Shown here piece by piece: positions 11,550-47,073 of a stretch of 64,000 bases of DNA; positions within the stretch are counted from its first letter, which is position 1, and every line of letters starts with the position of its first letter. The notes beneath the pieces were generated by a model that saw only the letters and a program-made list of their open reading frames with translations, ran no database searches and was not told the origin of the DNA. Made by a program: the position numbers and the translations under genes. Origin of the DNA: Candidatus Kerfeldbacteria bacterium (GTDB lineage: Bacteria > Patescibacteriota > Patescibacteriia > SBBC01 > CAIJZX01); the NCBI GenBank assembly GCA_963731735.1, contig CAVSWO010000001.1:761-64760 (forward strand), written 5' to 3'.

Positions 11550-12091
11550 GAGGCTGGAGGGGTTTGAAAAGTGGCGGTGTAGTGAAACGGCAACGCTTCT
11601 CGGCGACTGGCCTGTGAATCGGTTTGGACATTTTTCAGGTGCGGCTCTTGCTTCAGCAACGTGTCCAAACTGATAAAATCCGCTCGAGTTTGGGCCGTCC
11701 CGCTATAGCTGATATCACCGGCCAGATTGAGGGTCAGTTGCTCGAGCGTGACGTTGGCGGGGAGGAGGTTCAAAGCGGTGGCGATATCGCCGGCCCAATC
11801 ACGATTGGTGGGCAGGGCGGTGGCCAGCGGGGTAATGGTGTTATTCAGCGTGCGAATTTGGTTGGTGATTGTTCCAATCTCCGAATTGGCTGATTGGCGC
11901 TGCAATTGCTCAAGCGATTGCTGGGCTGACGATTGTTTTCGGACCAGCCACTGATCGGCGGCCACGGCCAAGCCGTTGCCCACGAGCACAAAAATGACGA
12001 CCAGGCTGATCACCTTTCGCCACCGTAAAACAGTCGCCCGTTGGCGTAGGGCCTGTTTCCGCTCGGGGGGTAACAGATTTAGCCGGATCAT
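11546..12091 (-). CDS. pilN: type IV pilus assembly protein PilN
   Basis: MIRLNLLPPERKQ... is the characteristic PilN N-terminus, followed by a single TM. Confidence 0.7.
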   Translation of the reverse strand: MIRLNLLPPERKQALRQRATVLRWRKVISLVVIFVLVGNGLAVAADQWLVRKQSSAQQSLEQLQRQSANSEIGTITNQIRTLNNTITPLATALPTNRDWAGDIATALNLLPANVTLEQLTLNLAGDISYSGTAQTRADFISLDTLLKQEPHLKNVQTDSQASRREALPFHYTATFQTPPAS

Positions 12092-13125: not shown

Positions 13126-13128
13126 AGG

Positions 13129-14349: not shown

Positions 14350-14352
14350 GGA

Positions 14353-16074
14353 TTATTCCTTGGTAACCCGGATAACTTCTTCAATCGTAGTCACGCCGGC
14401 CTTGGCCTTCAAGAATCCATCTTGGATTAAGGTGACCATGCCGTTCTTGATGGCCACCGCCTGCAAGTCGATGGCGGTCCCGTGTTCGAGAATCGTCTTG
14501 GCGATTTCCGGATTGATTTCCAACACCTCGTAAATCCCGATCCGCCCCTTGTAGCCATCGTTATTACAGCGCCGACAGCCACGGCCTCGGTAAAACAACA
14601 ATTCCTCGGCTTTCTGGCCTTTGACAATTTGTCCCTCCTGGACCAGCGTCTCGAGCAAGTATTGGACATTGATCTGTTTTTCTAACTGGGCGATGGCCTT
14701 GGAAGTCAGGGTGTAGCTTTCGATGCAATTCTGGCAAATCTTTCGAACCAACCGTTGGGCCACAATCAGGTTAGTGGTACTGGCGATCAGAAAGGCCGGC
14801 ACCTTCATTTCCGTTAAACGCGGTAAGACCGTCACGGCGTCGTTGGTGTGAATCGTGGCCAGCACCAGGTGGCCGGTCAGCGCGGCGTTGGCTGAAATTT
14901 CAGCCGTTTCTTCATCCCGAATTTCACCCACCATTATGATGTTCGGGTCTTGGCGCAACAAAGCCCGCAAGCCGGAAGCGAAGGTCATGCCAATTTTTGG
15001 ATTAACTTGGGTTTGGTTGACGCGCGGCATCCGATATTCAATCGGATCCTCGATCGTCGAGATGTTGACCTTGGGAGTATTGAGAATGTTTACGATGGTG
15101 TAGAGGGTGGTCGTTTTTCCGGAACCGGTCGGACCGCTGACGAAAATTTGTCCATGCGGCTTGATGATATTGCGCTTCACGATCGTTAAGTTTTTCTCCG
15201 AAAGACCGATTTGTTCGAGCGTCAAAACTTGCCCGGATTCGTTGAGCAGACGCAAGACCAGTTTTTCACCGTCGTAAACTGGGAGAATACTTACCCGAAA
15301 GGCGACGTTATAATCATCATTAGAAATTTTAAACCGTCCGTCTTGCGGTAAGCGATGCTCGTCGATTTTCAGATTGGCTAAGATTTTAATCCGGGCCACT
15401 ACGCCGGGCTGAACTTTTTTTGGTAGGGTCATGACTTCCCGCAAGACGCCGTCAATCCGGTAGCGAACGATGGTATCCTTTTCGGTTGGTTCAATGTGAA
15501 TGTCCGAAGCGCCTTCGAAAATCGCGTATTCAAGCAAGGTATCAACCACCCGGATGACCGGCACATCGGTGGCTAATTGTTTGAGGTCGGCTTCATTGTC
15601 GGCCCCTTCTTTGACTGTCGAAATATTTTCAAACTCAGCCTTTAATCCCTTGTGGTACTGCTTTAAAGCGGATTTGATGCCGGCCGGGGTGGTCAAATGA
15701 ATGACCGGCTTCAAGCCGGTTTTCTTGTCGATAAAATCGATGATTTGGAGGTCATCGGGATCGAGCATGGCCACTTTGACGCTGGTATCCGACTTGTCAA
15801 AGGTGACGACGTTATGCGACTGGATGATTGTTTCCGGCAGCAGGGTCAGGATATCGCGTCGAATGGTTTGGGCCGATATGTCGACAAAGGGGATTTTCCA
15901 GGCATTTGCCAACGTTTCGTACAACAATTCCTCGGTGACGAGATTCGAACCGGTTAATTCTTCAGCCAGGGAGATGTGTTTATCAGCCGCTTGACGGGCC
16001 GCGCCGTCAATTTGGTCTTCACTCAGCAGCTTATTATCCAGCAGGACTTGGCGAATTGATCGTTGATGTGGCAT
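14353..16074 (-). CDS. pilB: type IV pilus assembly ATPase PilB (GspE family)
   Basis: Walker A VSGPTGSGKTTTLY, a Walker B/His box, and a C-terminal tetracysteine motif (CQNC...CRRCNNDGYKGRIGIYEV). Confidence 0.93.
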   Translation of the reverse strand: MPHQRSIRQVLLDNKLLSEDQIDGAARQAADKHISLAEELTGSNLVTEELLYETLANAWKIPFVDISAQTIRRDILTLLPETIIQSHNVVTFDKSDTSVKVAMLDPDDLQIIDFIDKKTGLKPVIHLTTPAGIKSALKQYHKGLKAEFENISTVKEGADNEADLKQLATDVPVIRVVDTLLEYAIFEGASDIHIEPTEKDTIVRYRIDGVLREVMTLPKKVQPGVVARIKILANLKIDEHRLPQDGRFKISNDDYNVAFRVSILPVYDGEKLVLRLLNESGQVLTLEQIGLSEKNLTIVKRNIIKPHGQIFVSGPTGSGKTTTLYTIVNILNTPKVNISTIEDPIEYRMPRVNQTQVNPKIGMTFASGLRALLRQDPNIIMVGEIRDEETAEISANAALTGHLVLATIHTNDAVTVLPRLTEMKVPAFLIASTTNLIVAQRLVRKICQNCIESYTLTSKAIAQLEKQINVQYLLETLVQEGQIVKGQKAEELLFYRGRGCRRCNNDGYKGRIGIYEVLEINPEIAKTILEHGTAIDLQAVAIKNGMVTLIQDGFLKAKAGVTTIEEVIRVTKE

Positions 16075-16107
16075 TTTGTCTTGGATTTTCGCTTGAAAGC
16101 GAAACTA

Positions 16108-16136
16108 TTATAGCAAAATTGCCTATGGAGGTCAAC
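16108..16136 (-). promoter_or_regulatory. consensus sigma70 promoter of the pil operon (TTGACC-17-TATAAT on the minus strand)
   Basis: The reverse complement of 16108-16136 reads TTGACCtccataggcaattttgcTATAAT. The perfect inverted repeat tttcgct-tgaa-agcgaaa at 16088-16105 lies at the predicted TSS/5'UTR. Confidence 0.6.
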
Positions 16137-27017: not shown

Positions 27018-27046
27018 GTTGACAAAACCGATTTTTTGTGCTAAAA
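27018..27046 (+). promoter_or_regulatory. near-consensus sigma70 promoter (TTGACA-17-TAAAAT)
   Basis: TTGACA at 27018-27023, a 17-nt spacer, and TAAAAT at 27041-27046. The predicted TSS is near 27053, about 265 nt upstream of secD. Confidence 0.6.
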
Positions 27047-27052
27047 TACTAT

Positions 27053-27317: not shown

Positions 27318-28952
27318 ATGCGTCGATCACGACTCTGGCTGACATTCGGGTTGATCATCGGCCTCGCCTTGCTGGCTGGGTACATCGACTGGCCGAACGC
27401 GCCGACCACACCCTTTCCTCCCTTCAACCGGAATTTTCCGATTCGGCTTGGTTTAGATATCCAGGGCGGCAGCAGCTTGGTTTACCAGGCGGACATGTCG
27501 AAGATCCCGAGCGCTGATCGCGACTCAGCGCTGCAAGGTGTTCGTGACGTAATTGAACGTCGCGTGAATGCCTTCGGAGTTTCCGAACCAGTCGTGCAAA
27601 CTAATCACGGCGGGGGAGAGTACCGGGTGCTGGTTGAACTGGCCGGAATTAAAGATATCAACCAGGCGATTAAACAGATCGGGGAAACACCGTTACTGGA
27701 ATTTCGCATCGCCGCCGGCCTGCCAGATGCTGAAGCGAAACAGAAAGCCGAAGATTTACTCAAACAAATTCAGCAGGGCGCGGATTTTGGGGAAATCGCC
27801 AAAGCCAATTCTGATGACCCGGGATCGGCCGTCAAGGGTGGGGATTTGGGCTTTGCGGATCCAAGTTCCTATGTCACGGAGTTTGGTGATGCCTTGAAGA
27901 AACTCAAAGACGGCGAGATTACGTCGGCTCCGGTAAAGTCTCAATTCGGCTACCACATCATCAAACGAATCGCTACGAAAACAGTCGATCAGGACGGAAA
28001 ACCGGTTGAACAAATCGAGGCCGCGCACATTCTGGTGGCCACCAGTGATTCGGCCCAGCAAACGGGAAATTTTGTTCCAACCAAGCTGTCAGGCCAGCAG
28101 CTTAAACGAGCGGATGTGGTCTTCGACCCGACCGCCGGGACGCCCCAAGTCCAGCTGACCTTTAATAGTGAGGGTGCGAAATTGTTTGAACAACTGACCA
28201 CCGACCATGTCGGCGAGGTGTTGGGTATCTATTTAGACGGACAACCGATAAGTTTACCGCGCGTCAACGGTCCGATCACCGGCGGCACCGCCATCATTAC
28301 CGGTGACTTTTCCTTGCAGGAAGCCAAAGATTTGGCACGCCGGCTGAATGCCGGAGCCCTGCCGGTGCCGATTACCTTGGTCAGCCAGCAGAACATCGGT
28401 GCCAGCTTGGGTCAGGCGGCGGTGGAGCGCAGCTTTGCCGCTGGATTGATTGGCTTAGCCTTGGTGGCAGTGTTCATGATTCTGTACTACCGCCTGCCCG
28501 GCGTGGTGGCCGTGCTGGCACTCGGGGTCTACACCTTGCTGGTGCTGGCGATATTTAAAGTCTGGCCCGTAACGCTGACGCTGGCCGGGATCGCGGGATT
28601 TATCTTGTCGATCGGTATGGCGGTGGATGCCAACATTCTGGTCTTTGAACGCACCAAGGAAGAATTGCGCGCCGGCCGACCGCTGCTGTCCGCGATTGAC
28701 GAAGGCTTCCGCCGTGCCTGGCCGTCCATCCGTGATTCGAATATTTCCAGTTTAATTACCTCGGCCATTTTGATTTGGTTCGGCAGTAGTTTAATTAAAG
28801 GTTTCGCTGTGACGCTTTCGATCGGAATTTTGCTCTCTATGTTCTCGGCTTTGACGGTCACGCGGACCTTTATGTTGCTGATCGCCCGAAAAGGGATTGC
28901 CCGCCGACCATGGTTATTTGGGGTTGGAAAATCGGAGGTGACAGATGTATAA
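27318..28952 (+). CDS. secD: protein translocase subunit SecD carrying an inserted parvulin-type peptidyl-prolyl isomerase domain
   Basis: Canonical SecD TM1, P1-base (EYRVLVELAGIKDINQAIKQIGETPLLEFR; ITGGTAIITGDFSLQEAKDLARRLNAGALPVPI) and the C-terminal 5-TM bundle are present. Residues about 136-222 (FGEIAKANSDDPGSAVKGGDLGFADPSSYVTEFGDALKKLKDGEITSAPVKSQFGYHIIKRI) form a PpiC/parvulin rotamase domain where the P1 head normally sits. Confidence 0.9.
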   Translation: MRRSRLWLTFGLIIGLALLAGYIDWPNAPTTPFPPFNRNFPIRLGLDIQGGSSLVYQADMSKIPSADRDSALQGVRDVIERRVNAFGVSEPVVQTNHGGGEYRVLVELAGIKDINQAIKQIGETPLLEFRIAAGLPDAEAKQKAEDLLKQIQQGADFGEIAKANSDDPGSAVKGGDLGFADPSSYVTEFGDALKKLKDGEITSAPVKSQFGYHIIKRIATKTVDQDGKPVEQIEAAHILVATSDSAQQTGNFVPTKLSGQQLKRADVVFDPTAGTPQVQLTFNSEGAKLFEQLTTDHVGEVLGIYLDGQPISLPRVNGPITGGTAIITGDFSLQEAKDLARRLNAGALPVPITLVSQQNIGASLGQAAVERSFAAGLIGLALVAVFMILYYRLPGVVAVLALGVYTLLVLAIFKVWPVTLTLAGIAGFILSIGMAVDANILVFERTKEELRAGRPLLSAIDEGFRRAWPSIRDSNISSLITSAILIWFGSSLIKGFAVTLSIGILLSMFSALTVTRTFMLLIARKGIARRPWLFGVGKSEVTDV

Positions 28953-29847
28953 GATTATTCAAAAACGTCGATTCCTGATTTGGTTGTCAGCGGCTATCCT
29001 GATCCCCGGCATCATTGTCTTGGCGATGTATGGCCTCAAGCTCGGCATTGATTTCACCGGCGGATCGCGGTTGACCGTCCAATTTTCGGATCAACGGCCG
29101 GATGGGCCGGTGGCGGCCAAAACCGTTGATCAGCTGAATTTTGGCAAGGCCACGGTTCAAACCGCCGGCGACACCGATTTAGTGATCCGGCTCCCGAGCA
29201 TCAGTAATGATCAGCGGCAGCAAGTCCTGGATACATTACAAGCAAAATACGGGACCGTCACGGAACTCTCTTTTGAATCGATCGGACCGACGATCGGGAA
29301 AGAGTTACTGCAAAAAGCCTGGATCGCGCTGGCCTTGGTAATGGCTGCCATCGTGGCCTACATCAGCTGGGCTTTCCGAAACGTAAATGTCGGTCCGGTG
29401 CCGGCTTGGGCCTACGGCGTGTCGGCGATTCTGGCGTTAGTGCATGACGTACTGATCGTGATCGGCGTCTTTGCGCTACTCGGACATTTCAGAGGAGTTG
29501 AAGTCGACAGTTTATTTGTGACTGCCTTATTGACCGTACTCGGTTTCTCCGTCCATGACACGATCGTCGTTTTTGACCGCATCCGCGAGCGGCTGTTAAT
29601 TGGTGGCCAGGACTCGTTCGAAGATACCGTCAATGTCAGCTTGAACCAGACGCTGATTCGATCAATCAACACCTCGTTTACCACGCTGTTAGTGCTGGCT
29701 GTCCTATACATTTTTGGTGGGTCGAGTATTAGTAATTTCGTTTTGGCGCTGTTAATCGGGATTATATCCGGGACGTATTCGTCTATTTTTGTGGCCAGTC
29801 CGTTGCTGGTTATCTTCGAACGCTGGCGCGCTCGACGGCGCCGCTAG
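28945..29847 (+). CDS. secF: protein translocase subunit SecF
   Basis: 300 aa: N-terminal TM, a small periplasmic domain, then the 5-TM RND-like bundle (ALVHDVLIVIGVFALLG...). Overlaps the secD stop. Confidence 0.92.
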   Translation: MYKIIQKRRFLIWLSAAILIPGIIVLAMYGLKLGIDFTGGSRLTVQFSDQRPDGPVAAKTVDQLNFGKATVQTAGDTDLVIRLPSISNDQRQQVLDTLQAKYGTVTELSFESIGPTIGKELLQKAWIALALVMAAIVAYISWAFRNVNVGPVPAWAYGVSAILALVHDVLIVIGVFALLGHFRGVEVDSLFVTALLTVLGFSVHDTIVVFDRIRERLLIGGQDSFEDTVNVSLNQTLIRSINTSFTTLLVLAVLYIFGGSSISNFVLALLIGIISGTYSSIFVASPLLVIFERWRARRRR

Positions 29848-29900
29848 TTCCCAACAGGGGAAAGGGTAAAACCCCTGTTTTTGCATACAAGCCTGAATAC

Positions 29901-29929
29901 TTGACAGAAATGCAACAAAATGCTATACT
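29901..29929 (+). promoter_or_regulatory. sigma70 promoter (TTGACA-17-TATACT)
   Basis: TTGACA at 29901-29906 and TATACT at 29924-29929. It drives the three-gene module that begins at 29940/29955. Confidence 0.55.
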
Positions 29930-29954
29930 TTAGGCGTTTTTGAATAACTATCGC

Positions 29955-31094
29955 ATGGAAGATCAACTGCAAGATACAGGTGGGTCTATTCTTGATCGGG
30001 TGTTGCATAGCCAACAAACGGTCGCTTTAGAGCACTTTGACCCGCAAGATATCGTCCAAGATGTGCTGAAGCAGGTTTCTGAAAAAGAAGCCGATGTTTT
30101 ACGTCGGCGATTTGGCTTGGGGCAAATGGATCAAGAAACGTTGGAAAAAATCGGCAATCATTATCATGTGACGCGTGAACGGGTCCGCCAAATCGAGCGT
30201 TGGGCGATCAAGCACCTCCAGAAGTCATCGACGGTTAAAGCTCGTCTGCACCAGCTGGAAACGTTATTGCAGCAACTGATGGAAGAGCACGGTGGGTTGA
30301 TGCTTGAAGATGAACTCTTTGCCGCCCTTCATATGCACACGTCGCCGACTGACCGTTCACGCGCCGCGATTACGTTTTTGCTCGAAGAGCTGCTGGCGGA
30401 AAAAGTCGAACGGATTGACCAAGCACCCTATAAGCCCTATTGGAAGCTTCGGTTTGAAACGCCGAGTCATTTGCCAATTGTCTTGGCCGAAGCCGAAGCG
30501 GTGATCAGCCAAGAAGGACGGCCGATTCCGCATCAGCGTTTAATTGAAAAACTCTTGGCTCGTCCGGCCATTCAATCTTTGCAACCGGCCATGAATGACG
30601 TCATGATTGATACGGCGCTAAGCGTGGCCACCAGTATCGAACGCAACCCATTTGGCGAGTACGGTTTACGAAATTGGGGGAGTATCGTCCCGAAGCGAAT
30701 GCATGATAAAATATTGTTGGTCATGCGCAAGCACGGCAAACCGATGCACTTTCAAGACATTGCCAAAAAAATCAATGAACTTGGCTTTGACCAGCGCCAG
30801 GCCTACCCGCCGACCGTGCATAATGAACTGATACTGAATGATGAATACGTCTTGATTGGTCGCGGTATCTACGCCTTACGCGAATGGGGATACAAACCGG
30901 GCGTGGTGGCGGATGTCCTCGAAGCAATTTTACGCGAGGCCGGCGAACCAATGGCCCGCGAAGATCTGGTGGCCAAAGTCTTAGAGCAACGGGTGGTCAA
31001 GCGGAACACCATTCATTTAGCGCTGACAAATAAACGGCGCTTTGCGCGGACGTCCGACGGCCGCTACACGTTGGCGACGGCCCCGACCGTTTAA
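29955..31094 (+). CDS. sigma-70 region-4 HTH / HARE-HTH domain protein, putative transcription-associated factor
   Basis: The N-terminus EKEADVLRRRFGLGQMDQETLEKIGNHYHVTRERVRQIERWAIKHL is a textbook sigma70 region 4. The C-terminus GKPMHFQDIAKKINELG...YVLIGRGIYALREWG resembles a HARE-HTH winged helix. The ORF could also start at TTG 29940. Confidence 0.6.
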   Translation: MEDQLQDTGGSILDRVLHSQQTVALEHFDPQDIVQDVLKQVSEKEADVLRRRFGLGQMDQETLEKIGNHYHVTRERVRQIERWAIKHLQKSSTVKARLHQLETLLQQLMEEHGGLMLEDELFAALHMHTSPTDRSRAAITFLLEELLAEKVERIDQAPYKPYWKLRFETPSHLPIVLAEAEAVISQEGRPIPHQRLIEKLLARPAIQSLQPAMNDVMIDTALSVATSIERNPFGEYGLRNWGSIVPKRMHDKILLVMRKHGKPMHFQDIAKKINELGFDQRQAYPPTVHNELILNDEYVLIGRGIYALREWGYKPGVVADVLEAILREAGEPMAREDLVAKVLEQRVVKRNTIHLALTNKRRFARTSDGRYTLATAPTV

Positions 31095-31116
31095 AAATCC
31101 ATACCGAAAACAAATT

Positions 31117-32508
31117 ATGCCGGGAGGCTTTCAACTTACCATTTCAATTCCTGAATTTTCCAGTCCGCTGGCGGCGCTGTGGTGGCTTTTTACGCATGGC
31201 GGTTTTGTGGCGGTGGTGATCGCGATTGGCTATGGAATTTGGTGGTTGTATTTAGACTATATTCAAAGCCGCTACCTGGCTCGACAACAGTACGTCATGT
31301 TGGCGGTCGATGTGCCAAAGTTGAATGAGCAGACCCCGAAAGCGGTCGAGCATATTTTTAGTCATTTTCACGGCATCCACAAACAACCGAATAAACGCGA
31401 GTTGTATGTTGAGGGTTTTGTCCAGCCAACTATTACCGTCGAACTGGTTTCGATCGGCGGCTATATTCAGTTTGTGATTCGAACGCCGATTGAACAGCGA
31501 GATCTGGTTGAATCGGCCATTTACGCGCAATACCCGGATGCCGAAATTTCGGAAGTCGAGGACTATGCCTATCGCTACGATCCAAAGTTTCCGAATGACG
31601 AATTCGATTTGTGGGCGTCCGAATTGCAGATGACCAATAAAGATCCGTACCCGATCAAGACCTATCCGCTCTGGGAACACAGTCTGACCCAAACTTTTCT
31701 CGATCCGATGGCCTCGATGTTAGAAATGATGGGCCGGCTGCAGGATGGTGAAGAAATTTGGTTTCAGTGGATTCTCAAGCCAACCCTCGACAGTCGCTGG
31801 CGTGATAAGGGGATGGACATCATCAATAAATTGATTGGTGCAAAAGTCAAAATCAAAAAAGGCGCACTCGACTCGCTGGTTGAAGCGCCGGGGAATGTTT
31901 TGTTAGGCACTTATAATACGTTGACCCGTACCTTGTTTGAACCGGTCGAAGGCAATGCGCGCAAGGATGACAATGGACTGCCGAGTTTGATGCAGCATCT
32001 TCCTCCGCATGTCAAAAATCAAGTCGAGGCAATCGGTATCAAAATCAGTAAATTAGCCTTTGAAACCAAGGCGCGCGTCGTGTACGTTGGGCGCCAGGAT
32101 GTATTTAATAAATCCCGGGTCAGTTCGATTTTCGGTTCCCTCAAACAGTTTGCAACGCTGGATATGAACGGGTTTAAGCCGGATAAGGTCATGAAAACGC
32201 AACGCTCGTACTTTCGCGTTCCGCAGCGGGTAGCGGCCCTGAAGCGCAAACTGCTGCTGGGCTATCGGACCCGCAGCAACTGGACCGGTCGTACCACCTT
32301 TATGCTGAATACCGAGGAATTGGCCTCGCTCTGGCATTTCCCGGTCGTAACGGTCAAAGCGCCACAAGTCAAAAAGACTGACGCCAAGCGCGGCGAACCG
32401 CCGGTCACACTGCCGACGGGTGAAGTAGCGGAGCGGGTCGAAAGACCGGTGGCGGCTCCGGCTGGACCACGCGGTGGCGCTCCCACCAATTTACCGACGC
32501 GTCCATGA
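31117..32508 (+). CDS. membrane-anchored hypothetical protein (2 N-terminal TM), translationally coupled partner of the downstream ATPase
   Basis: Start chosen at the ATG at 31117 (MPGGFQL...). TM helices LAALWWLFTHGGFVAVVIAIGYGIWWLYL, then a roughly 400-aa soluble domain with no known motif. ATGA overlap with the next gene. Confidence 0.55.
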   Translation: MPGGFQLTISIPEFSSPLAALWWLFTHGGFVAVVIAIGYGIWWLYLDYIQSRYLARQQYVMLAVDVPKLNEQTPKAVEHIFSHFHGIHKQPNKRELYVEGFVQPTITVELVSIGGYIQFVIRTPIEQRDLVESAIYAQYPDAEISEVEDYAYRYDPKFPNDEFDLWASELQMTNKDPYPIKTYPLWEHSLTQTFLDPMASMLEMMGRLQDGEEIWFQWILKPTLDSRWRDKGMDIINKLIGAKVKIKKGALDSLVEAPGNVLLGTYNTLTRTLFEPVEGNARKDDNGLPSLMQHLPPHVKNQVEAIGIKISKLAFETKARVVYVGRQDVFNKSRVSSIFGSLKQFATLDMNGFKPDKVMKTQRSYFRVPQRVAALKRKLLLGYRTRSNWTGRTTFMLNTEELASLWHFPVVTVKAPQVKKTDAKRGEPPVTLPTGEVAERVERPVAAPAGPRGGAPTNLPTRP

Positions 32509-34187
32509 GCGAACAACCGCAAGACGGCGTGACTTTATTTGCGACCACCAATTACCGTGGTCAGCAGCAACCGTTCGGGATCAAGACCGATGACCGACGT
32601 CGGCACATGTATGTGATCGGCAAGACCGGCATGGGCAAATCGACCATGCTTGAAAACATGATTATTCAGGATATCCGCGACGGTCAGGGGATTTGCGTGG
32701 TTGATCCGCACGGCGACTTAGTCGAAAAAATTGTCAACTTCATTCCCTCACATCGGGTCAATGACGTAATTTATTTTAACCCGGCTGACGCCGATTATCC
32801 GATTGCATTTAATATTTTGGAAGCCATTGATCCGCGCCAACGTCACCTGGTGGCTTCCGGGCTGATCGCGGTCTTCAAGAAACTCTGGGTTGATTCCTGG
32901 GGTCCGCGGCTCGAATATATTTTACGGAATACGATTTTGGCGTTGATTGAATACCCGGGTTCAACACTGTTGGGGATCAATCGGATGTTTGTCGACAAAG
33001 ACTACCGGAATAAGGTGGTCAACCATATTTCCGATCCGATCGTCAAATCTTTTTGGCAAACGGAGTTTAACGCGTATGCGCAGCAATTTCGAACCGAAGC
33101 CGTTTCGCCAATTCAAAATAAAATCGGACAATTTTTGTCGAGTTCAATCATTCGCAATATTGTCGGTCAGCCAAAATCAACGATTGACATGCGAGATATT
33201 ATGGACAGCGGAAAAATCCTGCTCCTGAATTTGGCCAAAGGCCGGATCGGTGAAGACAACGCCGCCCTGCTCGGTGCGATGATGATAACCAAGTTGCAGG
33301 TGGCGGCTATGAGTCGGATTGATATTCCTGAGCCGGAACGCCGAGATTTTATACTCTACGTTGACGAGTTTCAAAATTTTGCAACTGAATCATTTGCCAA
33401 TATTTTATCCGAAGCCAGAAAATACCGGCTGGACTTAGTGATCGCGCATCAATACATTGAGCAATTGGACGAGGCAGTGCGAGCGGCCGTGTTTGGCAAC
33501 GTCGGAACCATGATTTGTTTTCGTGTCGGGGCCGCTGATGCGGAATTTCTGGCCAAAGAATTTTTTCCGGTTTTTACCGAAACCGATCTCGTTAACCTAA
33601 CCAAGTTTGATATTTACTTAAAGTTAATGATCGACGGGGTGGCTTCGGAACCATTTTCGGCTACCGGTTTACCGCCAGTGCAAAATCCGGACAACCTTGA
33701 GGAAACGATTATTCGTGTTTCCCGTGAACGTTATGCCAAACAGCGCGATGTGGTCGAAGAAAAAATTTCACGCTGGTCCGGCGCGATGTTGGAAGCCATG
33801 GCGTCAGACGCAAAGTCGAGCGGCGACCGCCGCAATCGGGGACCCGCGCGATCGGATGGCCCGGCTCGATCAGAATCTCGCGCCCCGACTCGAAATCCCG
33901 ACAATCCGCCTGAAGCCAAGCCGAAAATCGATGTCCAAAGCCGGCAACCGGTGCCGACGGAAGGAATTCCGGCTGAAATATCTTTAGCGGACGCCTTCAA
34001 GTCACAACCGAACGACACACGATCTCCGGCCGAGCAGTCGCATCGAAATCGCCGACCAGAGCGACCGCGGCGGCGCCATGATCAACCGGCCCGACCGTCA
34101 AAAGCTGCCCCATCGGCGTCGACCGGACCGGCCGAAAATCCGGCGCCGCAGTCGATTCAGCCAGGCCAGGTCGTCCAAATCAAGTAA
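32505..34187 (+). CDS. TraG/TraD/VirD4-family (type IV coupling protein-like) P-loop ATPase with no N-terminal membrane anchor and a disordered basic C-terminal tail
   Basis: Walker A VIGKTGMGKST, Walker B ILYVDEFQNF, then ARKYRLDLVIAHQYIEQL...VFGNVGTMICFRVGAADAEF, which matches the conserved C-terminal block of TrwB/VirD4 coupling proteins. The last ~130 aa are low-complexity with GPARSDGPARSESRAP repeats. Confidence 0.75.
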   Translation: MSEQPQDGVTLFATTNYRGQQQPFGIKTDDRRRHMYVIGKTGMGKSTMLENMIIQDIRDGQGICVVDPHGDLVEKIVNFIPSHRVNDVIYFNPADADYPIAFNILEAIDPRQRHLVASGLIAVFKKLWVDSWGPRLEYILRNTILALIEYPGSTLLGINRMFVDKDYRNKVVNHISDPIVKSFWQTEFNAYAQQFRTEAVSPIQNKIGQFLSSSIIRNIVGQPKSTIDMRDIMDSGKILLLNLAKGRIGEDNAALLGAMMITKLQVAAMSRIDIPEPERRDFILYVDEFQNFATESFANILSEARKYRLDLVIAHQYIEQLDEAVRAAVFGNVGTMICFRVGAADAEFLAKEFFPVFTETDLVNLTKFDIYLKLMIDGVASEPFSATGLPPVQNPDNLEETIIRVSRERYAKQRDVVEEKISRWSGAMLEAMASDAKSSGDRRNRGPARSDGPARSESRAPTRNPDNPPEAKPKIDVQSRQPVPTEGIPAEISLADAFKSQPNDTRSPAEQSHRNRRPERPRRRHDQPARPSKAAPSASTGPAENPAPQSIQPGQVVQIK

Positions 34188-34199
34188 TTCTGCTATAGT

Positions 34200-35096
34200 G
34201 TGGCGGTGAACAAACTGAGTTGCGTTATTCCCGCATTTAATGAAGCCGAGAGCCTGCCCCACCTGTGGGAGCGGTTGAAGCCAGTGGTCAGCCAGTTCCC
34301 AGCTTGGGAAGTGGTACTGGTGAGTGACGGTAGCACCGATGCAACTGTGGCGATTGCCGAGCAATGGGTCGCTCAAGGTGATCCGGTCAAGGTGATTGAC
34401 CTCCACCGTAATCGCGGAAAATCAGCCGCCCTGATGGCCGGATTAGCGGTCGTCAGTGGTGATGTGGTTGTTACCCTCGATGCTGATTTACAGGATGATC
34501 CGCAAGAAATTCCGCGTCTGGTCCAGACACTTGATGACCAGCAGGTCGACATGGTTGGCGGCTGGAAACGCGATCGGAAAGATCCTTTGATAAAAAAAAT
34601 TTCTTCCAAAGTTTTTAACGGGATTGCTAGTCGGATTGCTAAACAGCGATTCTACGATTTAAACTGCGGGCTGAAGGCCTATCGTCGGGAAGTCGTCGAG
34701 ACCCTGGATTTATATGGTGACTTGTACCGCTTTATTCCGATTTTGGCCGTGGCCAACGGCTTTCGGGTCGCCGAAATACCGGTCAAACACCACGCGCGAC
34801 AATGGGGTGTTTCAAAATACGGGTTACGCTTGAGCGGCGCTTTTGATTTGTTGTCCTTGGCGATGATTGCCAATTACCGCTGGCGACCGCTGCACTTGTT
34901 TGGGCGCTGGGGCGCGCTTCTCGCCTTAGTGGGAATTATCTTGCTGGGTTACTTAGCCTGGTTGCGGCTGCAAGGTGAAACCATCGGCGATCGGCCGCTC
35001 TTGATATTCGGTGCCTTGTTCGTGATCGCGGGTTTGCAAATTTTCTTTACCGGCTTATTAGGTGATCTGATGATCCATCATCGGCGAAAAGAATGA
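34200..35096 (+). CDS. GT2 polyprenyl-phosphate glycosyltransferase (DPM1/GtrB/ArnC-like) with a C-terminal TM pair
   Basis: VIPAFNEAESL...VVLVSDGSTD...DADLQDDP (DxD). GTG start at 34200 (alternative 34206). Confidence 0.85.
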   Translation: MAVNKLSCVIPAFNEAESLPHLWERLKPVVSQFPAWEVVLVSDGSTDATVAIAEQWVAQGDPVKVIDLHRNRGKSAALMAGLAVVSGDVVVTLDADLQDDPQEIPRLVQTLDDQQVDMVGGWKRDRKDPLIKKISSKVFNGIASRIAKQRFYDLNCGLKAYRREVVETLDLYGDLYRFIPILAVANGFRVAEIPVKHHARQWGVSKYGLRLSGAFDLLSLAMIANYRWRPLHLFGRWGALLALVGIILLGYLAWLRLQGETIGDRPLLIFGALFVIAGLQIFFTGLLGDLMIHHRRKE

Positions 35097-35677
35097 GTTC
35101 GACCAACCAACAAAAATACGAAAGCGTCAATCCGCTACGCAAAATATTTTTGCGGCCGTTTCAACGCCGTTTTGTAACCACCATCACGACGACCCAGCCG
35201 CAGTCGCTGCTTGAGGTTGGTTGCGGTGAAGGTTTTTTGTTGACGGAAATTCAGGCGGCCTTACCGGCTACCCGAGTAGTTGGCATGGACGTAGTACCGG
35301 AATTTGTGCATGAGGGACATCGGTTATTCCCTGGGCTTGATTTACGAGTGGGTGATATTTACCACATCAATCAACCAGATCAGAGTTGGGACACGGTGGT
35401 GGCGAGTGAAGTGCTTGAGCACTTAGAACGTCCCGCGCAAGCCCTCGCTGAATTAGCACGGGTGGCGAAACGACACCTGGTCCTGTCTGTACCCTGGGAG
35501 CCCTGGTTTCAGGCTATGAATTTCGCCCGCGGTCAACATCTTCGCCGCTGGGGGAATCATCCCGAGCATATTAACCACTGGTCACCAAAGACATTTGAAA
35601 AATTGGTTGGTCAGTACGCCAAAGTAACCCAAGTAAAAACGTCACTGCCATGGATCATCCTGGTCGCCCAGGTATAA
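35093..35677 (+). CDS. class I SAM-dependent methyltransferase
   Basis: Motif I LEVGCGEGFL and post-I VVGMDVVPEF. ATGA-coupled to the GT2 gene. Confidence 0.8.
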   Translation: MSSTNQQKYESVNPLRKIFLRPFQRRFVTTITTTQPQSLLEVGCGEGFLLTEIQAALPATRVVGMDVVPEFVHEGHRLFPGLDLRVGDIYHINQPDQSWDTVVASEVLEHLERPAQALAELARVAKRHLVLSVPWEPWFQAMNFARGQHLRRWGNHPEHINHWSPKTFEKLVGQYAKVTQVKTSLPWIILVAQV

Positions 35678-36546
35678 CCCGATGGGTGCGGCCGCTCGGC
35701 TGGGTGTTGAGCTTGGTGGCGCTCGGGTTTGTTGTGCATTGGCTACTCAAAGTCGATCTCAACACTTGGCGTTCGTTGCGGTCGGCGAATTTTTGGTTGC
35801 TGGGACTCTCGCTGGTTATATTCCAGGCCTGGTTCAGTCTACGGTTTTTGGGTTGGGAATGGATTAGTACCCGCTACGGATTACATGATGCCCGCGGTTC
35901 AAACGCGCGCATGTGGACCCTGAGTGAATTGCTGCGGTATATTCCCGGAAATGTCTGGTCGTTTGCGGCTCGGTATCGCGGAGCCCGAGACCGCGGGGTC
36001 AGCCGGAGTGGGGCGGTGGCGGCGATTGTGTTTGAAGCGACTTTCTTATTCGCCGGCGCGGCCGTCGTAGCGGTGATATTTTGGCGGCCGAATTGGTGGT
36101 GGCTTTGGGCCGTTTGTATTGTCCTGCTCTTGTACCTGCTGCCGGCTATCTTGGGCCGTGTGGCTCGCTGGCGAGGCTGGGAAACGATCTCAATCCGTCC
36201 CTCGACGGCCTTAAAATTTTTGAGTTTATATGTAGCGGTTTGGGCTGTCTACGGATTCGCTCAAGCCGTTATGTTGCAGGCCATTCCGGGCCTCGGACTG
36301 CCGAATATTCTTATGCTGGCCGGCGCGAATGTTACCGCTTGGCTGATTGGCTATGTCAGCATCATCGCGCCCACCGGATTAGGGGTCCGTGAAGTTGCCT
36401 TGGTTGGGTTACTCCCAACCTTGACTGCCGAGGTGGCGAGTTTTGCTGCGGTATTGACTCGATTGTGGTTGATCATCAGTGAACTGGTTTTCTTGGGCAT
36501 AGTGTTTCTGATTCCTCATGGTCGATCCAACCCACAATCCTCGTAA
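35650..36546 (+). CDS. polytopic membrane protein (lysyl-PG-synthase-TM / flippase-like, UPF0104-like)
   Basis: 298 aa with about 8 TM. Sits in the GT2-MTase-GT-C cluster. Confidence 0.5.
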   Translation: MDHPGRPGITRWVRPLGWVLSLVALGFVVHWLLKVDLNTWRSLRSANFWLLGLSLVIFQAWFSLRFLGWEWISTRYGLHDARGSNARMWTLSELLRYIPGNVWSFAARYRGARDRGVSRSGAVAAIVFEATFLFAGAAVVAVIFWRPNWWWLWAVCIVLLLYLLPAILGRVARWRGWETISIRPSTALKFLSLYVAVWAVYGFAQAVMLQAIPGLGLPNILMLAGANVTAWLIGYVSIIAPTGLGVREVALVGLLPTLTAEVASFAAVLTRLWLIISELVFLGIVFLIPHGRSNPQSS

Positions 36547-37954
36547 GCCGCACTGGACAATCATCGGCGTGCTAGCGCTGAGCCTACTCTACGCTACCTA
36601 TTGGTCATGGTTCGATTTGACTCGTCATGCCAAAACGAATTCCACCCGGTTCGATCTTGGGAATGCCGAACAAATTATCTGGAACGGAGCGCACGGACGA
36701 TGGTTTCAATCGACGGATCCCTATGGCACCGCGACCGTCAGTCGATTAGCGTATCATGCCGACTTCTTTTTGATGGTCTTGGTGCCGGTTTACGCGCTAG
36801 CGCCATACACGCAAACGCTCCTTTTACTCCAGGTTCTCGCAATTGCCAGTTCTTTTCTGGCGGTTTACCTACTGGCTCGGGCCTGGACGAAGTCGGCGGC
36901 CTGGGGTTTCGGTTTGGCTGCGTTGTTCGCTATCTCACCGGCTTTGCACTGGATGACCTTATTTGATTTTCACGCGGTGGCCTTCGCGGTGCCGCTCATC
37001 TTGTGGGCGGTTTGGGCGATGCACAAGCAACGTTATGGCTGGATGTTCGTTCTGGCCGGCTTGGCCATGCTCACCAAAGAGGAAATCGGAATGACGCTGC
37101 TGCCGCTGGCGGCCATGTTGTGGTTTTGGAAAAAACAACCTAGGTTGGCATGGCTGATGGTCCTGCCTGCAGTTTGGTCGCTGGCCATGCTGACGTGGGC
37201 CATCCCGCACGCCCAATCCGCTGTTGATGCCGCCGATGTTTTTCGCAGTAGTTTTGGCAATACCACCGGGCAAGTCGTAAAAAATCTTATTATCCATCCG
37301 CGTATGCTGTGGGGCACCGTGACGAGTCCGGCCACGATTCATTATGCCTTGCAACTGTTGATTCCGTTCGGGTGGTTGCCCCTGGGTAATTGGCTTTCGC
37401 TTGGCGCCGGACCCGATGCTTTGATTAACGTGATTAGCGGCAAAGAAACGCAACAGACCATCTTCTTTCATTACGCGGGCGGGATGTTGGCCTGGATGAT
37501 GCTTGGTACGATCGGCGTGATTGCCTGGGTCAGGAAGCAATGGCCGGATCGTATTTTCACCTTCGCCATAGCCGGCTGGTTGTTGGTTTGGGGTGGGGCG
37601 GGAGCTTGGCTATATGGACCGCTGCCCGGCGCGAAACTTGATCACACACGCTTCGCTACCTGGCGCAATGAAAATGCCGCGCCGATCGCCAGCTGGGAAA
37701 AACGGATTCCGACGAGCGCAGCAGTCTCAGCAACCAATAACATCGGGTCACATTTCGCCCGGCGTCAAGCTTTCTATTCGTTCCCCCTGGGTCTGCAGCA
37801 GGCCGATTATGCGATCGTCCTGCAAGGACATGCGCTGCCTGAAGTCACCGACCAAGCAGGTGTCGACGCGGCCCTGGCTGAGCTGCAGGCCAATCCGCAT
37901 TGGCGAACCGTTTTTCATCAGGCCGATCTTACAATTCTTGCACGCCAGCCGTAG
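36518..37954 (+). CDS. DUF2079-family membrane protein (predicted GT-C glycosyltransferase)
   Basis: N-terminal RFDLGNAEQIIWN resembles the DUF2079 FDLGIFDQ signature. Polytopic N-terminal half plus a soluble C-terminal domain. Confidence 0.6.
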   Translation: MVDPTHNPRKPHWTIIGVLALSLLYATYWSWFDLTRHAKTNSTRFDLGNAEQIIWNGAHGRWFQSTDPYGTATVSRLAYHADFFLMVLVPVYALAPYTQTLLLLQVLAIASSFLAVYLLARAWTKSAAWGFGLAALFAISPALHWMTLFDFHAVAFAVPLILWAVWAMHKQRYGWMFVLAGLAMLTKEEIGMTLLPLAAMLWFWKKQPRLAWLMVLPAVWSLAMLTWAIPHAQSAVDAADVFRSSFGNTTGQVVKNLIIHPRMLWGTVTSPATIHYALQLLIPFGWLPLGNWLSLGAGPDALINVISGKETQQTIFFHYAGGMLAWMMLGTIGVIAWVRKQWPDRIFTFAIAGWLLVWGGAGAWLYGPLPGAKLDHTRFATWRNENAAPIASWEKRIPTSAAVSATNNIGSHFARRQAFYSFPLGLQQADYAIVLQGHALPEVTDQAGVDAALAELQANPHWRTVFHQADLTILARQP

Positions 37955-37998
37955 ACCCACCTTGCGGGTTACCGGACAGAATGCTAGAGTTTTCGGTC

Positions 37999-39093
37999 AT
38001 GACTGATAGCAAGAAAATACTGGTCGGAATTTCCGGCGGCGTCGATAGCGCCGTGGCGGCCTTGTTGCTGCAACGTCAGGGCTATCAGGTGCACGGGGTC
38101 TTCATGAAAAATTGGTCAGAAGATGATTTCGGCGGTCCGTGTCCGTGGGAGGAAGACCAAGCCTCAGCTCAGGTAGTCGCCCAGCATCTCGGTATTCCGA
38201 TCGAAACGTGGAACTTTGAACCCGAATATCGTGAGCGGGTTTTTCAGGTGATGTTACATGAGTACCAGCAGGGGCGAACGCCCAACCCGGATATTCTCTG
38301 CAACCGGGAAATAAAATTCAATCTATTTCTCGAACGGGCGCTAACGCACGCTCCGCTGATGGCGACCGGCCATTACGCGCGAACTCACGATGGGCGATTA
38401 TATAAAGCCAGTGACCAAACCAAAGATCAATCATATTTTCTCGCGGCAGTTTCATCGAAGGCATTAAAACAAACAGTTTTCCCGTTGGGTGAGCAGAAAA
38501 AAACAGCGGTTCGAGCGATTGCCAAGGATGCGAAACTGCCAAATTGGGATCGTCCGGATAGCGTCGGCATTTGTTTTGTGGGTGAGAAAAAGATGGTGGA
38601 GTTTTTATCTCGCTATTTAACCTGGAGCCCCGGTCCGATCATCCTATCCGATGGCACTGAAATCGGCCAACACCGCGGCCTACAGTTCTACACCATCGGT
38701 CAGCGTCGCGGGTTTGGGGCCGATATTGACGCCGCTAAAGTTAGCCAGCACCTTGGGCAAACACAGGCGCTCTATATTGCCGAAAAACGGTCCGCCACGA
38801 ATACTTTAGTACTGGCTCCGGCCGATCAACCAACCCAGTTGGAACGCCAAGAATTTAGGGTGTCGGAAGCGCACTGGATCCGGCACGCTTGTGTTTTTCC
38901 TTGGATCGGTCAAGCTAAGTTTCGGTATCGGCAACCAGATGTTCCTATCACTCTAGTGCCAGATGGCCACCGTCTGCGGGTCATCTGTGCAACTCCCCAA
39001 CGGGCGATTACGCCCGGACAATATGCGGTTTTCTATCAGGGCGATGAATGCATCGGCAGCGCGGTGATTGACACCTTTCAAGCCAACTCGTAA
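37999..39093 (+). CDS. mnmA: tRNA-specific 2-thiouridylase
   Basis: PP-loop ILVGISGGVDSAV, followed by CPWEED..., NPDILCNREIKF. Confidence 0.92.
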   Translation: MTDSKKILVGISGGVDSAVAALLLQRQGYQVHGVFMKNWSEDDFGGPCPWEEDQASAQVVAQHLGIPIETWNFEPEYRERVFQVMLHEYQQGRTPNPDILCNREIKFNLFLERALTHAPLMATGHYARTHDGRLYKASDQTKDQSYFLAAVSSKALKQTVFPLGEQKKTAVRAIAKDAKLPNWDRPDSVGICFVGEKKMVEFLSRYLTWSPGPIILSDGTEIGQHRGLQFYTIGQRRGFGADIDAAKVSQHLGQTQALYIAEKRSATNTLVLAPADQPTQLERQEFRVSEAHWIRHACVFPWIGQAKFRYRQPDVPITLVPDGHRLRVICATPQRAITPGQYAVFYQGDECIGSAVIDTFQANS

Positions 39094-46174: not shown

Positions 46175-47023
46175 ATGTATATGGCAACCGCTAAAAAGAA
46201 AACTCGAACAGCAAAAATTACCAATTCGTCGTCCAAGCCGGCAGAAAAAGCTCTACCCGCCTTGGAGCCAAAATTACAGAATCTTCGGGTCTGGAATTGG
46301 TCGATGGCCTTTTTGCATGCCATTTCTGGCAGTCTAATGCTTTGGCTTAGCACGGACTTTCGACTGCCGATCACCACCGCTTTCGTGCAATATAGTCCGA
46401 GCAGTCGAATGCTTGAACCGAATTTGCAAAACTTTGCGGAAGCCCGAATCGGTCCGTTGGTGGCCGGTTTTCTGTTCTTATCAGCGCTGGCGCATTTCCT
46501 GGTGGCCGGACCGTTTTATAAATGGTACACCGAGCATATCGTCAAAGGCATTAACCCGGCTCGCTGGATTGAATATACATTTTCATCATCCTTGATGATT
46601 GTCGTGATCGCCATGCTGGTTGGCGTCTATGATATCGGCACCCTGATCGCTATCTTCGGACTGAACGCGATGATGATTCTCTTCGGGTGGGTGATGGAGC
46701 TCCATAATCAAACCACTCAACGGACTGATTGGACGAGTTTCGTGTTTGGGTCAGTGGCGGGAATAATCCCTTGGATCGTGATTGGCATCTATTTATTTGG
46801 CGCTGGAAACGGCAATGGCGAAGTCCCAACGTTCGTGTACTGGATTTACGGTTCAATATTTGTCTTCTTCAACTGCTTCGCCTTGAATATGGTGCTCCAA
46901 TACAAACGGGTCGGCCGCTGGCAGGACTATTTGTTTGGAGAGAAAACATATCTCATCTTGAGTTTGGTGGCTAAATCACTGCTGGCCTGGCAAGTTTTTG
47001 CCGGTACGCTTCGGCCGGTCTAG
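46175..47023 (+). CDS. heliorhodopsin (inverted-topology microbial rhodopsin)
   Basis: RWIEYTFSSSLMIVVIAMLVG, FGWVMELHNQ, GIIPWIVIGIYLFG and YLILSLVAKSLLAWQVFAGTLRP align closely with heliorhodopsin 48C12, including the TM7 Schiff-base lysine (K267, AAA at 46973-46975). GGAGG spacing favours the second ATG at 46181. Confidence 0.88.
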   Translation: MYMATAKKKTRTAKITNSSSKPAEKALPALEPKLQNLRVWNWSMAFLHAISGSLMLWLSTDFRLPITTAFVQYSPSSRMLEPNLQNFAEARIGPLVAGFLFLSALAHFLVAGPFYKWYTEHIVKGINPARWIEYTFSSSLMIVVIAMLVGVYDIGTLIAIFGLNAMMILFGWVMELHNQTTQRTDWTSFVFGSVAGIIPWIVIGIYLFGAGNGNGEVPTFVYWIYGSIFVFFNCFALNMVLQYKRVGRWQDYLFGEKTYLILSLVAKSLLAWQVFAGTLRPV

Positions 47024-47044: not shown

Positions 47045-47073
47045 TTGACAGCCGAAGCATCCTTGGGTATAGT
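47045..47073 (+). promoter_or_regulatory. consensus-like sigma70 promoter (TTGACA-17-TATAGT) of the infA-rpoA-rplQ operon
   Basis: TTGACA at 47045-47050 and TATAGT at 47068-47073. About 200 nt of leader follow, with hairpins gcctatcg-gcat-cgataggc (47131-47150) and cgcgga-acatcg-tccgcg. Confidence 0.55.

Follow-up and report, generated by a model that had tools for sequence, protein, structure and literature searches.

Patescibacteria (the Candidate Phyla Radiation) account for a substantial part of bacterial diversity. They are ultra-small and host-attached, and the few systems known as essential to this lifestyle are their envelope machines, the type IV pili and a type IV secretion system (T4SS). 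The subject here is a group of three genes, called g1, g2 and g3, in a 64,000-nucleotide stretch of a Candidatus Kerfeldbacteria genome (assembly GCA_963731735.1, contig CAVSWO010000001.1, positions 761 to 64,760 of the forward strand), and this whole stretch is referred to as the window. By sequence comparison, g2 and g3 correspond to the two halves of one membrane-anchored translocation ATPase of the VirD4/TrwB type, cut at the linker between its domains. The closest described proteins are the type IV coupling proteins (T4CPs: VirD4, TraG, TrwB and TraD, with structures solved for TrwB of R388 and for DotL), whose anchor is a two-helix transmembrane (TM) domain in the same polypeptide. In Patescibacteria, 5,713 VirD4-like genes have been counted in 2,918 of 3,035 genomes, about two per genome, and 148 of these genes lie near virB4; VirB4 of the MPF-FATA clade is found in 2,417 of the same genomes and relaxases are almost absent (PMC12102498, 2025). 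The role of these VirD4-like genes was left open and exaptation was raised by the authors (PMC12102498). For the T4SS of this phylum, a role in the export of protein instead of DNA has been put forward (PMC10633639), and the passage of PMC12102498 that cites PMC10633639 gives the T4SS as essential and the T4CP homologue as non-essential in transposon sequencing (Tn-seq) of Southlakia. Two further cases are of use for comparison. TraJ of pIP501, a T4CP without TM segments, is proposed to be anchored by TraI, a small membrane protein (PMC12857230), and the archaeal DNA-import ATPases CedB and CedD carry domains that resemble the N-terminal domain (NTD) of VirB4 (bioRxiv 10.1101/2024.09.27.615246).

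A first-pass annotation of the window, made from its letters, had left room for a system not yet described. This holds in part: the T4CP-like ATPase class of Patescibacteria is already known, in the form of orphan VirD4-like genes (PMC12102498), while no description of the split architecture or of its partners was found in the literature searched, and PMC12102498 makes no mention of the split architecture, g2, g1 or secDF. What is new is that one of the roughly two VirD4-like copies per genome is a split protein, that its membrane half is identified, a family so far represented only by a Pfam accession (PF26449) and predicted to have the VirB4-NTD fold, and that the genes stand in the fixed order secDF, g1, g2, g3. 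The three genes are as follows.

29955-31094, plus strand: g1, ATG start, 379 amino acids, in agreement with public gene call P0390
31117-32508, plus strand: g2, 463 amino acids, from public gene call P0001 and homologue alignment
32505-34187, plus strand: g3, 560 amino acids, public gene call P0121
32505-32508, plus strand: ATGA overlap of the g2 stop and the g3 start, read directly

The evidence that g2 and g3 are parts of one protein comes from fused relatives, which were identified through PHROGs and local BLAST. In PHROG 5156 (824 positions, function unknown), the match of g2 covers positions 25-358 (2.7e-13) and that of g3 covers 392-814 (1.7e-61). A member of this group, gp156 of Bacillus phage G (825 amino acids), aligns with the g2 profile over residues 17-168 (hhalign probability 97%, E 1e-10) and with g3 over residues of about 373-752 (28% identity, 2e-41). 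Fused TM-NTD-ATPase proteins are also present within Patescibacteria, in two of the 80 species-level genomes or loci, mostly from ABY1-type candidate phyla, that were sampled for synteny (L009 and L046). They are collinear with g2 (1e-17) and g3 (45% identity, about 1e-130), and they are paralogues that lie a few kilobases upstream of the split pair.

L009:33-2591: fused paralogue, 852 amino acids
L046:1524-4094: fused paralogue, 856 amino acids, here beyond secDF

At the junction in these paralogues, EELASxxHFP is followed by P-x-N-I-P, and this runs directly into the initial beta-strands of g3. The cut therefore lies exactly in the linker, and the terminal PPxNLP of g2 would be the linker stub. 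The fused relatives share with g2 and g3 the EELAxxxHFP end of the NTD and a proline-rich linker into the ATPase, and differ in being single polypeptides; in addition, gp156 has no TM helix and the fused paralogues of Patescibacteria have no long basic tail. The presence of one split and one fused paralogue would be consistent with published counts of about two T4CP-like genes in each genome. On an Embleya plasmid, a collinear TM-NTD-ATPase of 812 amino acids has the gene of a VirB4-like ATPase on one side and that of a Replic_Relax protein on the other, and PrgI (VirB3-like) and NlpC/P60 proteins are encoded nearby. This is the coupling-protein slot of a monoderm (actinobacterial) T4SS cluster. 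The phage and actinobacterial fused versions adjoin a VirB4-like ATPase, whereas the g2/g3 pair does not. These relatives (PHROG 5156, gp156, L009 and L046) lend good support to the first-pass proposal of gene 2 as a split-off anchor. No fusion was seen among the top 150 of 3092 g2 profile matches, which are all 343-691 amino acids long. One further candidate, a g2-g3 protein of 1016 amino acids in L066, was rejected, as its halves are joined by a masked run of N bases.

Some side observations concern these relatives. In phage G (87975-97114, L083), gp155, a VirB4-like ATPase, is encoded directly upstream of gp156. ATPases similar to g3 occur in about 46 phage records, nearly all of Bacillus phages, and are often mis-annotated as 'MsbA-like'. 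For g2, tblastn against phages found nothing, and IMG/VR gave one short fragment. In L046, the fused paralogue is followed by a small protein with a weak, sub-threshold HTH_20 match, and both the split and the fused paralogue may have a DNA-binding neighbour.

The features of g3, the motor half, are listed here.

32505-33791, plus strand: core (residues 1 to about 429), from hidden Markov model (HMM) matches and alignment
32619-32642, plus strand: Walker A motif GKTGMGKS, residues 39-46
33351-33368, plus strand: Walker B motif ILYVDE, residues 283-288
residues 308-321 and 330-342, plus strand: TrwB/VirD4-type blocks named by the first-pass annotation
33792-34184, plus strand: basic disordered tail, from composition and the AlphaFold2 (AF2) model
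33978-33998, plus strand: tail island ISLADAF, conserved in orthologues
34158-34184, plus strand: C-terminal island QPGQVVQIK, conserved in orthologues

Three coupling-protein families of Pfam match g3 above their cut-offs: PF10412 TrwB_AAD_bind with 47.8 bits (cut-off 20.5; 1.3e-12), PF02534 T4SS-DNA_transf with 28.2 bits (20.1) and PF12696 TraG-D_C with 24.7 bits (22). DUF87, the HerA central domain, is above its cut-off as well, with a match restricted to the P-loop stretch of residues 22-75. FtsK_SpoIIIE reaches 15.2 bits against a cut-off of 24, the HerA model NF040819 reaches 16 against 970, and other ATPase families are also below theirs. Within NCBIfam, TraD/VirD4-like families score best, although far below the equivalog cut-offs (56.7 bits against 366; 45.1 against 250), and in a sequence search of the PDB only TrwB (2e-7) and DotL (3e-5) were matched. 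Foldseek ranks TrwB first, followed by DndH-C, HerA, DotL and Cag-beta, with VirB4 lower. By sequence and by predicted fold, g3 is closest to T4CPs, in line with the first-pass view that it is no generic HerA/FtsK ATPase. The lack of an anchor of its own is likewise borne out, since no hydrophobic segment is found in g3 (maximum KD19 1.25).

The tail of g3, its last 131 residues, contains 16% Pro, 13% Arg and 11.5% Ser, has a net charge of +7, and is modelled with a confidence (pLDDT) below 50. The first-pass description of about 130 disordered residues rich in Arg, Pro and Ser stands; the GPARS repeat that it named is present in two copies, at 446 and 452, as a local duplication that is not kept in relatives. 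Among orthologues, the tail ranges from 91 to 358 amino acids and is net positive in 38 of 46, and two islands recur, ISLxEAL and a C-terminal h-x-P-G-Q-V-V-x-h. The PGQVV motif has no informative association with the presence of an adjacent g1. The core, by comparison, is 60-80% identical across candidate phyla.

The membrane half, g2, had been described as a protein with two TM helices and a 400-residue domain of no known motif, and neither part of this description is retained.

31165-31263, plus strand: TM helix, from hydropathy and the AF2 model
31285-32355, plus strand: predicted cytoplasmic VirB4-NTD-like domain ending in EELASLWHFP, from the AF2 model and homologue alignment
32392-32415, plus strand: GEPPVTLP, in the disordered linker
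32482-32496, plus strand: C-terminal PTNLP

Hydropathy finds one hydrophobic stretch (residues 17-49), and the AF2 model, judged usable (pLDDT 77, pTM 0.72), begins with a single long helix (17-56), continues with an alpha/beta domain (57-413) and is disordered at the C-terminus. Because the single stretch is modelled as one continuous helix, one TM helix is predicted rather than two. In 30 homologues, the positive-inside rule gives 0.07 Lys plus Arg ahead of the TM helix against 2.2 behind it, which together with the model indicates a short N-terminus outside and a large cytoplasmic domain. The predicted fold of this domain suggests that of the VirB4 NTD. The precomputed domain tag PF26449 is carried by the identical protein P0001 and by nearly all homologues in the public protein collection; g2 has no match in the local Pfam and NCBIfam libraries, the local Pfam copy being without the PF26449 model, and a literature search for this accession found nothing. 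The family is large, with about 3092 clusters at 50% identity in a profile search of 1.84 billion representatives. Its members have an invariant domain end, EELA[ST]xxHFP; GEPPxxLP comes next, and a variable spacer separates it from the terminal PPxNLP. The C-terminal motif P-x-N-[LI]-P is present in 68 of 78 orthologues. The PPxNLP tail of g2 and the ISLxEAL and PGQVV islands of g3 are offered as testable motifs.

Set beside the described systems, g3 shares with T4CPs the P-loop core, the Walker A and B motifs and the TraG-D_C-type blocks; in the model, with a pLDDT of only 57-76 there, an all-helical insert stands where the all-alpha domain of T4CPs belongs, and the tail with its conserved terminal motif is reminiscent of the TraD tail that binds TraM. 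Unlike T4CPs, g3 has no TM domain in the same polypeptide and no adjacent relaxase or mating-pair genes, and its scores stay far under the equivalog cut-offs of all curated T4CP families (TraD, CD1115 and others of NCBIfam). Where T4CPs have a two-helix TM domain, the anchor of g3 would be g2, a VirB4-NTD-like protein of about 400 residues. The gene lies on the chromosome, and nearly all Patescibacteria have genes of the T4CP-like class (PMC12102498). TraJ and TraI of pIP501 follow a common logic with g3 and g2, namely a soluble coupling ATPase and a separately encoded membrane protein. However, TraI is small, has two TM segments, lacks a large cytoplasmic domain and comes from a complete conjugative plasmid, whereas the homology of g2 to the N-terminal part of the fused relatives demonstrates that g2 and its motor are fragments of one ancestral protein. 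VirB4 (TrwK) together with VirB3 is another comparison, although it has no sequence similarity to g2, and g3 is nearer to VirD4 than to VirB4. Unlike VirB4, g2 and g3 are encoded as two proteins, and Patescibacteria also carry a separate canonical VirB4 (PMC12102498). The predicted combination of a VirB4-like NTD with a VirD4-like motor would make g2/g3 a natural chimera, which bears on the divergence of the two T4SS ATPases. CedB and CedD of Crenarchaeota are membrane-anchored FtsK-HerA ATPases with VirB4-NTD-like N-termini that take up DNA without a relaxase, and g3 has a weak match to NCBIfam CedD (1.5e-7). In contrast to g2/g3, the Ced ATPases are single polypeptides of the HerA/VirB4 clade and have genes of CedA channel proteins alongside; beside g2/g3 there is no gene of this kind.

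The locus is conserved in relatives, and the organism-named homologues of g1, g2 and g3 are all from Patescibacteria, the nearest named one being Candidatus Kerfeldbacteria. Counting the evaluable loci of the 80, g3 directly follows g2 in 56 of 71 and g1 directly precedes g2 in 45 of 72. All three genes are together in 29 of 64, secF is followed by g2 and g3 without g1 in 20 of 64, and g1 and g2 occur without g3 in 12 of 64. The co-occurrence expected by the first-pass annotation is thus observed; from these arrangements, g2 is the hub of the locus, and the linkage of g1 is looser than that between g2 and g3. The loci with g1 and g2 adjacent and without g3 belong to a sublineage (L047:8751-11509, and L039, L041, L048, L050, L052, L059, L061, L063, L068, L070 and L079) in which no g3 is found within 10 kb downstream; g1 is only about 31% identical there, and a glycosyltransferase and a DUF4012-like protein come after g2. 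Recurrent neighbours among the 80 loci are secDF (usually upstream), mnmA, alaS, murC, secA and tgt, all of them housekeeping genes. Where it was recovered, in 80 species, the g2-g3 pair is a conserved chromosomal pair among housekeeping genes and not a mobile element.

This context also decides against an anti-phage defence or conflict system, in which g3 would be an ATPase of the HerA, DndH or MADS type and g1 a sigma-like regulator. In PADLOC, g3 does match mad8 (1.9e-17), HerA models (2e-9 and below) and DndH (0.007), g1 matches MzaA (7.5e-12), and the DndH C-domain is among the fold matches of g3. The MzaA match, however, spans sigma region 4 only, there is no adjacent effector (nuclease, Sir2 or methylase partner), and the VirD4-like family is nearly universal in the phylum (PMC12102498). 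It is atypical of defence islands to keep one place among housekeeping genes across dozens of species, and so is conservation as strong as that of the g3 core (60-80% identity). With similarities of single domains only, a defence role is considered very improbable and was rejected on genomic context.

A connection to the Sec machinery is suggested by the same neighbours. Here the motor would serve protein export or membrane-protein handling near SecDF, like EccC/EccE of type VII secretion or a protein-translocating T4CP. Indeed, secD and secF are directly upstream in many lineages, including the 20 of 64 loci without g1 in which secF abuts g2, secA is also upstream in this window, and a protein-exporting T4SS has been proposed for the phylum (PMC10633639). 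On the other hand, secF and the module are set apart here by a terminator and a promoter of the module's own, the similarity to EccE is much weaker than that to VirB4, and g3 is not EccC/FtsK-like (FtsK_SpoIIIE 15.2 bits against 24). Synteny of core genes in reduced genomes may also be plain inherited order. The secDF genes are a conserved neighbour and only a candidate member of the g2/g3 system, and a Sec-linked function is improbable.

The explanation we favour, at a probability of roughly 50%, is that g2/g3 is a split coupling-type ATPase, whose best candidate partner is a T4SS encoded at another locus. The three genes would be co-transcribed from the promoter upstream of g1, with g2 and g3 translationally coupled. 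The TM helix and the VirB4-NTD-fold domain would be given by g2, and the P-loop motor with the basic disordered tail by g3. The C-terminal linker of g2 (GEPPxxLP ... PPxNLP) is thought to dock on the N-terminal beta-strands of g3, because the fused paralogues run the same motif directly into those strands. Docking would hold a g3 hexamer, in ring form, at the cytoplasmic side of the membrane, like the VirB3/VirB4-NTD module or the TM domain of a T4CP, and the motor would then recruit a macromolecular substrate, DNA or protein, and push it toward a membrane channel. That this channel is the monoderm (MPF-FATA type) T4SS encoded elsewhere in most Patescibacteria, and that the motor feeds it, is the leading proposal, at a little under even odds. 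The basic tail of g3 and the co-encoded helix-turn-helix (HTH) protein lean weakly to nucleic-acid cargo. The fused paralogue and the split one might stand in for each other. Such redundancy would explain the non-essentiality in Tn-seq if Southlakia carries both; more generally, it might explain the lack of a phenotype in a single T4CP knockout, if Saccharibacteria carry both.

Several observations weigh against this assignment. No gene for VirB4, VirB6, a relaxase or a T4SS pilin is present across the whole 64-kb window, as the first-pass annotation had also stated, and no VirB4-like gene was found within 10 kb of the 80 related loci at BLAST sensitivity. In Southlakia, the T4CP homologue is non-essential while the T4SS is essential, so that coupling of g2/g3 to a T4SS is only a proposal, and plasmid-borne g3-like genes are mostly on non-mobilizable replicons (273 of 337). 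The similarity of g2 to VirB4 is one of predicted structure without sequence signal: neither CagE_TrbE_VirB of Pfam nor VirB4_CagE of NCBIfam is matched, a profile search of the PDB to E 10 gave no match, and hhalign against TrwK and pSK41 TrsD was not significant. The N-terminal part of the Embleya protein is only weakly similar to g2 (hhalign E 0.0036, probability 9%), and a contact between g2 and g3 is inferred from the fusions. The AF2 model of g3 is poor (mean pLDDT 60, built from 30 close homologues), so that its fold matches only support the sequence result, and with a pLDDT of 57-76 the helical insert at about 105-235, at the place of the all-alpha domain, is uncertain as a domain. Finally, the role of g1 is drawn from adjacency, and g1 is absent from the upstream position in 27 of 72 evaluable loci.

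Some of these points would suit an autonomous, exapted translocase that does not serve a T4SS and operates by itself or together with a different envelope machine. Its role could be DNA import or export, as in the archaeal Ced ATPases, or chromosomal DNA pumping, with g1 as a DNA-binding adaptor. A role as FtsK replacement was considered as well; FtsK is reportedly mentioned in a transcriptome study of the saccharibacterium TM7x, so that its loss across the whole phylum is unlikely. The module is always away from virB4, in the window and in the 80 loci, as are all but 148 of the 5,713 genes surveyed in PMC12102498; the phylum has almost no relaxases, and the T4CP, unlike the essential T4SS, is dispensable (PMC12102498). 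Genomes with VirD4-like genes outnumber those with VirB4 (2,918 against 2,417 of 3,035), although this gap could stem from there being two gene copies in incomplete metagenome-assembled genomes. The basic tail in 38 of 46 orthologues, the co-encoded g1 with its domains of DNA-binding families, and the plasmid genes on mainly non-mobilizable replicons point in the same direction, as do CedB and CedD, which import DNA with VirB4-NTD-like domains and to which g3 has the weak CedD match. Nevertheless, no channel protein (ComEC, VirB6 or CedA-like) is conserved beside the pair, the conserved neighbours are all housekeeping genes, and the fused homologues outside the phylum adjoin VirB4-like ATPases. 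The minimal translocation device of the first-pass annotation, taken as autonomous, is possible, and independence from a T4SS is held to be rather unlikely. A more specific form, in which g2/g3 and the fused paralogue are a phylum-wide stand-alone translocase derived from a conjugative coupling protein and g1 is an adaptor that docks on the C-terminal tail of g3, is unlikely to a slightly greater degree. If such a stand-alone translocase were true, it would be an undescribed transport machine specific to the episymbiotic lifestyle, and its VirB4-like NTD and VirD4-like motor would mark an evolutionary intermediate between the T4SS ATPases.

Under the favoured reading of a split coupling-type ATPase, g1 would be an accessory factor. 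Two domains were recognized in it by Pfam, with Sigma70_r4 at 48.9 bits and HARE-HTH at 45.6 bits, each over its cut-off.

30063-30224, plus strand: sigma-70 region 4 HTH, from Pfam and NCBIfam
beginning at 30699-30800, plus strand: HARE-HTH, in the C-terminal half of g1, from Pfam

After the HARE-HTH, the C-terminus has a weak winged-helix signal. The recognition helix VTRERVRQIE (region 4.2) is essentially as in primary sigma factors, and RpoD models match this stretch alone; all NCBIfam sigma matches are within residues of about 15-116, with scores far under the cut-offs. Because there are no matches to sigma regions 2 or 3 in Pfam or NCBIfam, g1 is not a sigma factor, which agrees with the first-pass assignment of both domains. 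Nor is it the RNA polymerase delta subunit (RpoE), because it is below the delta-subunit cut-off (TIGR04567, 34.2 against 42) and has no acidic tail. It is like delta by its HARE-HTH and like primary sigma factors by the region 4.2 helix, whereas delta has an N-terminal HARE-HTH followed by an acidic tail and g1 has its HARE-HTH C-terminally. Homologues of g1 number about 3095; those with an organism name, few in number, are from Patescibacteria, and the label 'sigma factor-like HTH DNA-binding protein' is found on some. No published description of the sigma region 4 plus HARE-HTH architecture was found in the literature search. From its domains and adjacency, g1 would be a factor that binds DNA or RNA polymerase. 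One possible role is regulation of the operon by way of -35-like sequences; another is that of an accessory to the motor that binds DNA, in analogy with TraM or TrwA. A side observation in the window concerns RpoA (49137-49982, plus strand, 281 amino acids), in which only the N-terminal dimerisation and insert domains are recognized and no model of the alpha C-terminal domain matches. The RNA polymerase encoded here may be without the usual contact domain for UP-elements and activators, and this could bear on g1 as a carrier of sigma region 4 and HARE-HTH.

The transcription unit was read directly from the sequence, and the near-consensus promoter, the three co-directional genes and the ATGA overlap of the last two described by the first-pass annotation were all found.

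27318-29847, plus strand: secD-secF, conserved neighbour upstream of g1-g2-g3
29854-29882, plus strand: hairpin ACAGGGG...CCCCTGT with T-run, 3' of secF, read by eye
29901-29929, plus strand: promoter TTGACA-17 nt-TATACT with TG-extended -10, sigma-70-type, 11 of 12 consensus positions matched

The hairpin, whose 11-nucleotide loop is outside the rules of the hairpin scan and which is thus absent from the scan list, is likely the secDF terminator, and g1-g2-g3 is likely a separate transcription unit. The promoter lies in the 107-nucleotide secF-g1 spacer, directly downstream of the hairpin and T-run. With at most one mismatch, the consensus pattern (TTGACA-17-TGnTATAAT) occurs five times in the window against 0.11 expected, and none of 100 shuffles reaches five.

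16107-16135, minus strand: near-consensus promoter
27019-27047, plus strand: near-consensus promoter
29901-29929, plus strand: near-consensus promoter, that of g1
47045-47073, plus strand: near-consensus promoter
57186-57214, plus strand: near-consensus promoter

At least three of the five are directly upstream of operon starts (the pilB operon, secD and g1); the g1 promoter is therefore very probably real, and sigma-70 promoters with an extended -10 seem to be very canonical in this organism. An alternative start of g1 is TTG at 29940. For g2, a start at TTG 31042, given by the open reading frame finder, was rejected, as homologue alignment and the public gene call favour 31117. The ATGA overlap implies that g2 and g3 are probably translationally coupled. 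The next gene begins 12 nucleotides past the end of g3 with no terminator in between; therefore transcription probably continues past 34187, and the g1 promoter may drive a much longer operon. The genes concerned (34200-39093, plus strand) are tightly packed or overlapping and encode a GT2 glycosyltransferase, a methyltransferase, an unassigned membrane protein, a DUF2079 protein and MnmA. This downstream set is common only to the closest relative (L001), and mnmA is downstream in 24 loci.

The window is housekeeping chromosome throughout. Upstream of g1-g2-g3 it holds mraY-murD-ftsW-murG-murC-murB, followed by secA, secD and secF; besides the module there are genes for a glycosyltransferase, a methyltransferase, DUF2079, mnmA, alaS, ABC transporters, a heliorhodopsin, ribosomal proteins and rpoA, and furthermore cell-envelope polysaccharide genes, mreB and holB. 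Type IV pilus genes are present as well.

11025-16074, minus strand: pilB, pilC, pilM and pilN, from window gene content

Cooperation of the module with this pilus had been suggested, and the link was rejected: the pil genes are about 14 kb off, on the other strand and beyond the dcw and sec genes, and no pilus genes are among the conserved neighbours of the 80 related loci.

Two minor observations concern other genes of the window. In SecD (27318-28952, plus strand), residues 137-218 are a PpiC-type peptidyl-prolyl isomerase (parvulin) insert (Rotamase_3, 5e-25) within the periplasmic P1 region, so that this SecD would be in effect a foldase fused into a Sec accessory subunit; the same parvulin-like stretch was read by eye in secD of L046. 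A full-length heliorhodopsin gene is located at 46175-47023 on the plus strand (PF18761, 3.4e-102), and the near-consensus promoter at 47045-47073 comes directly after it.

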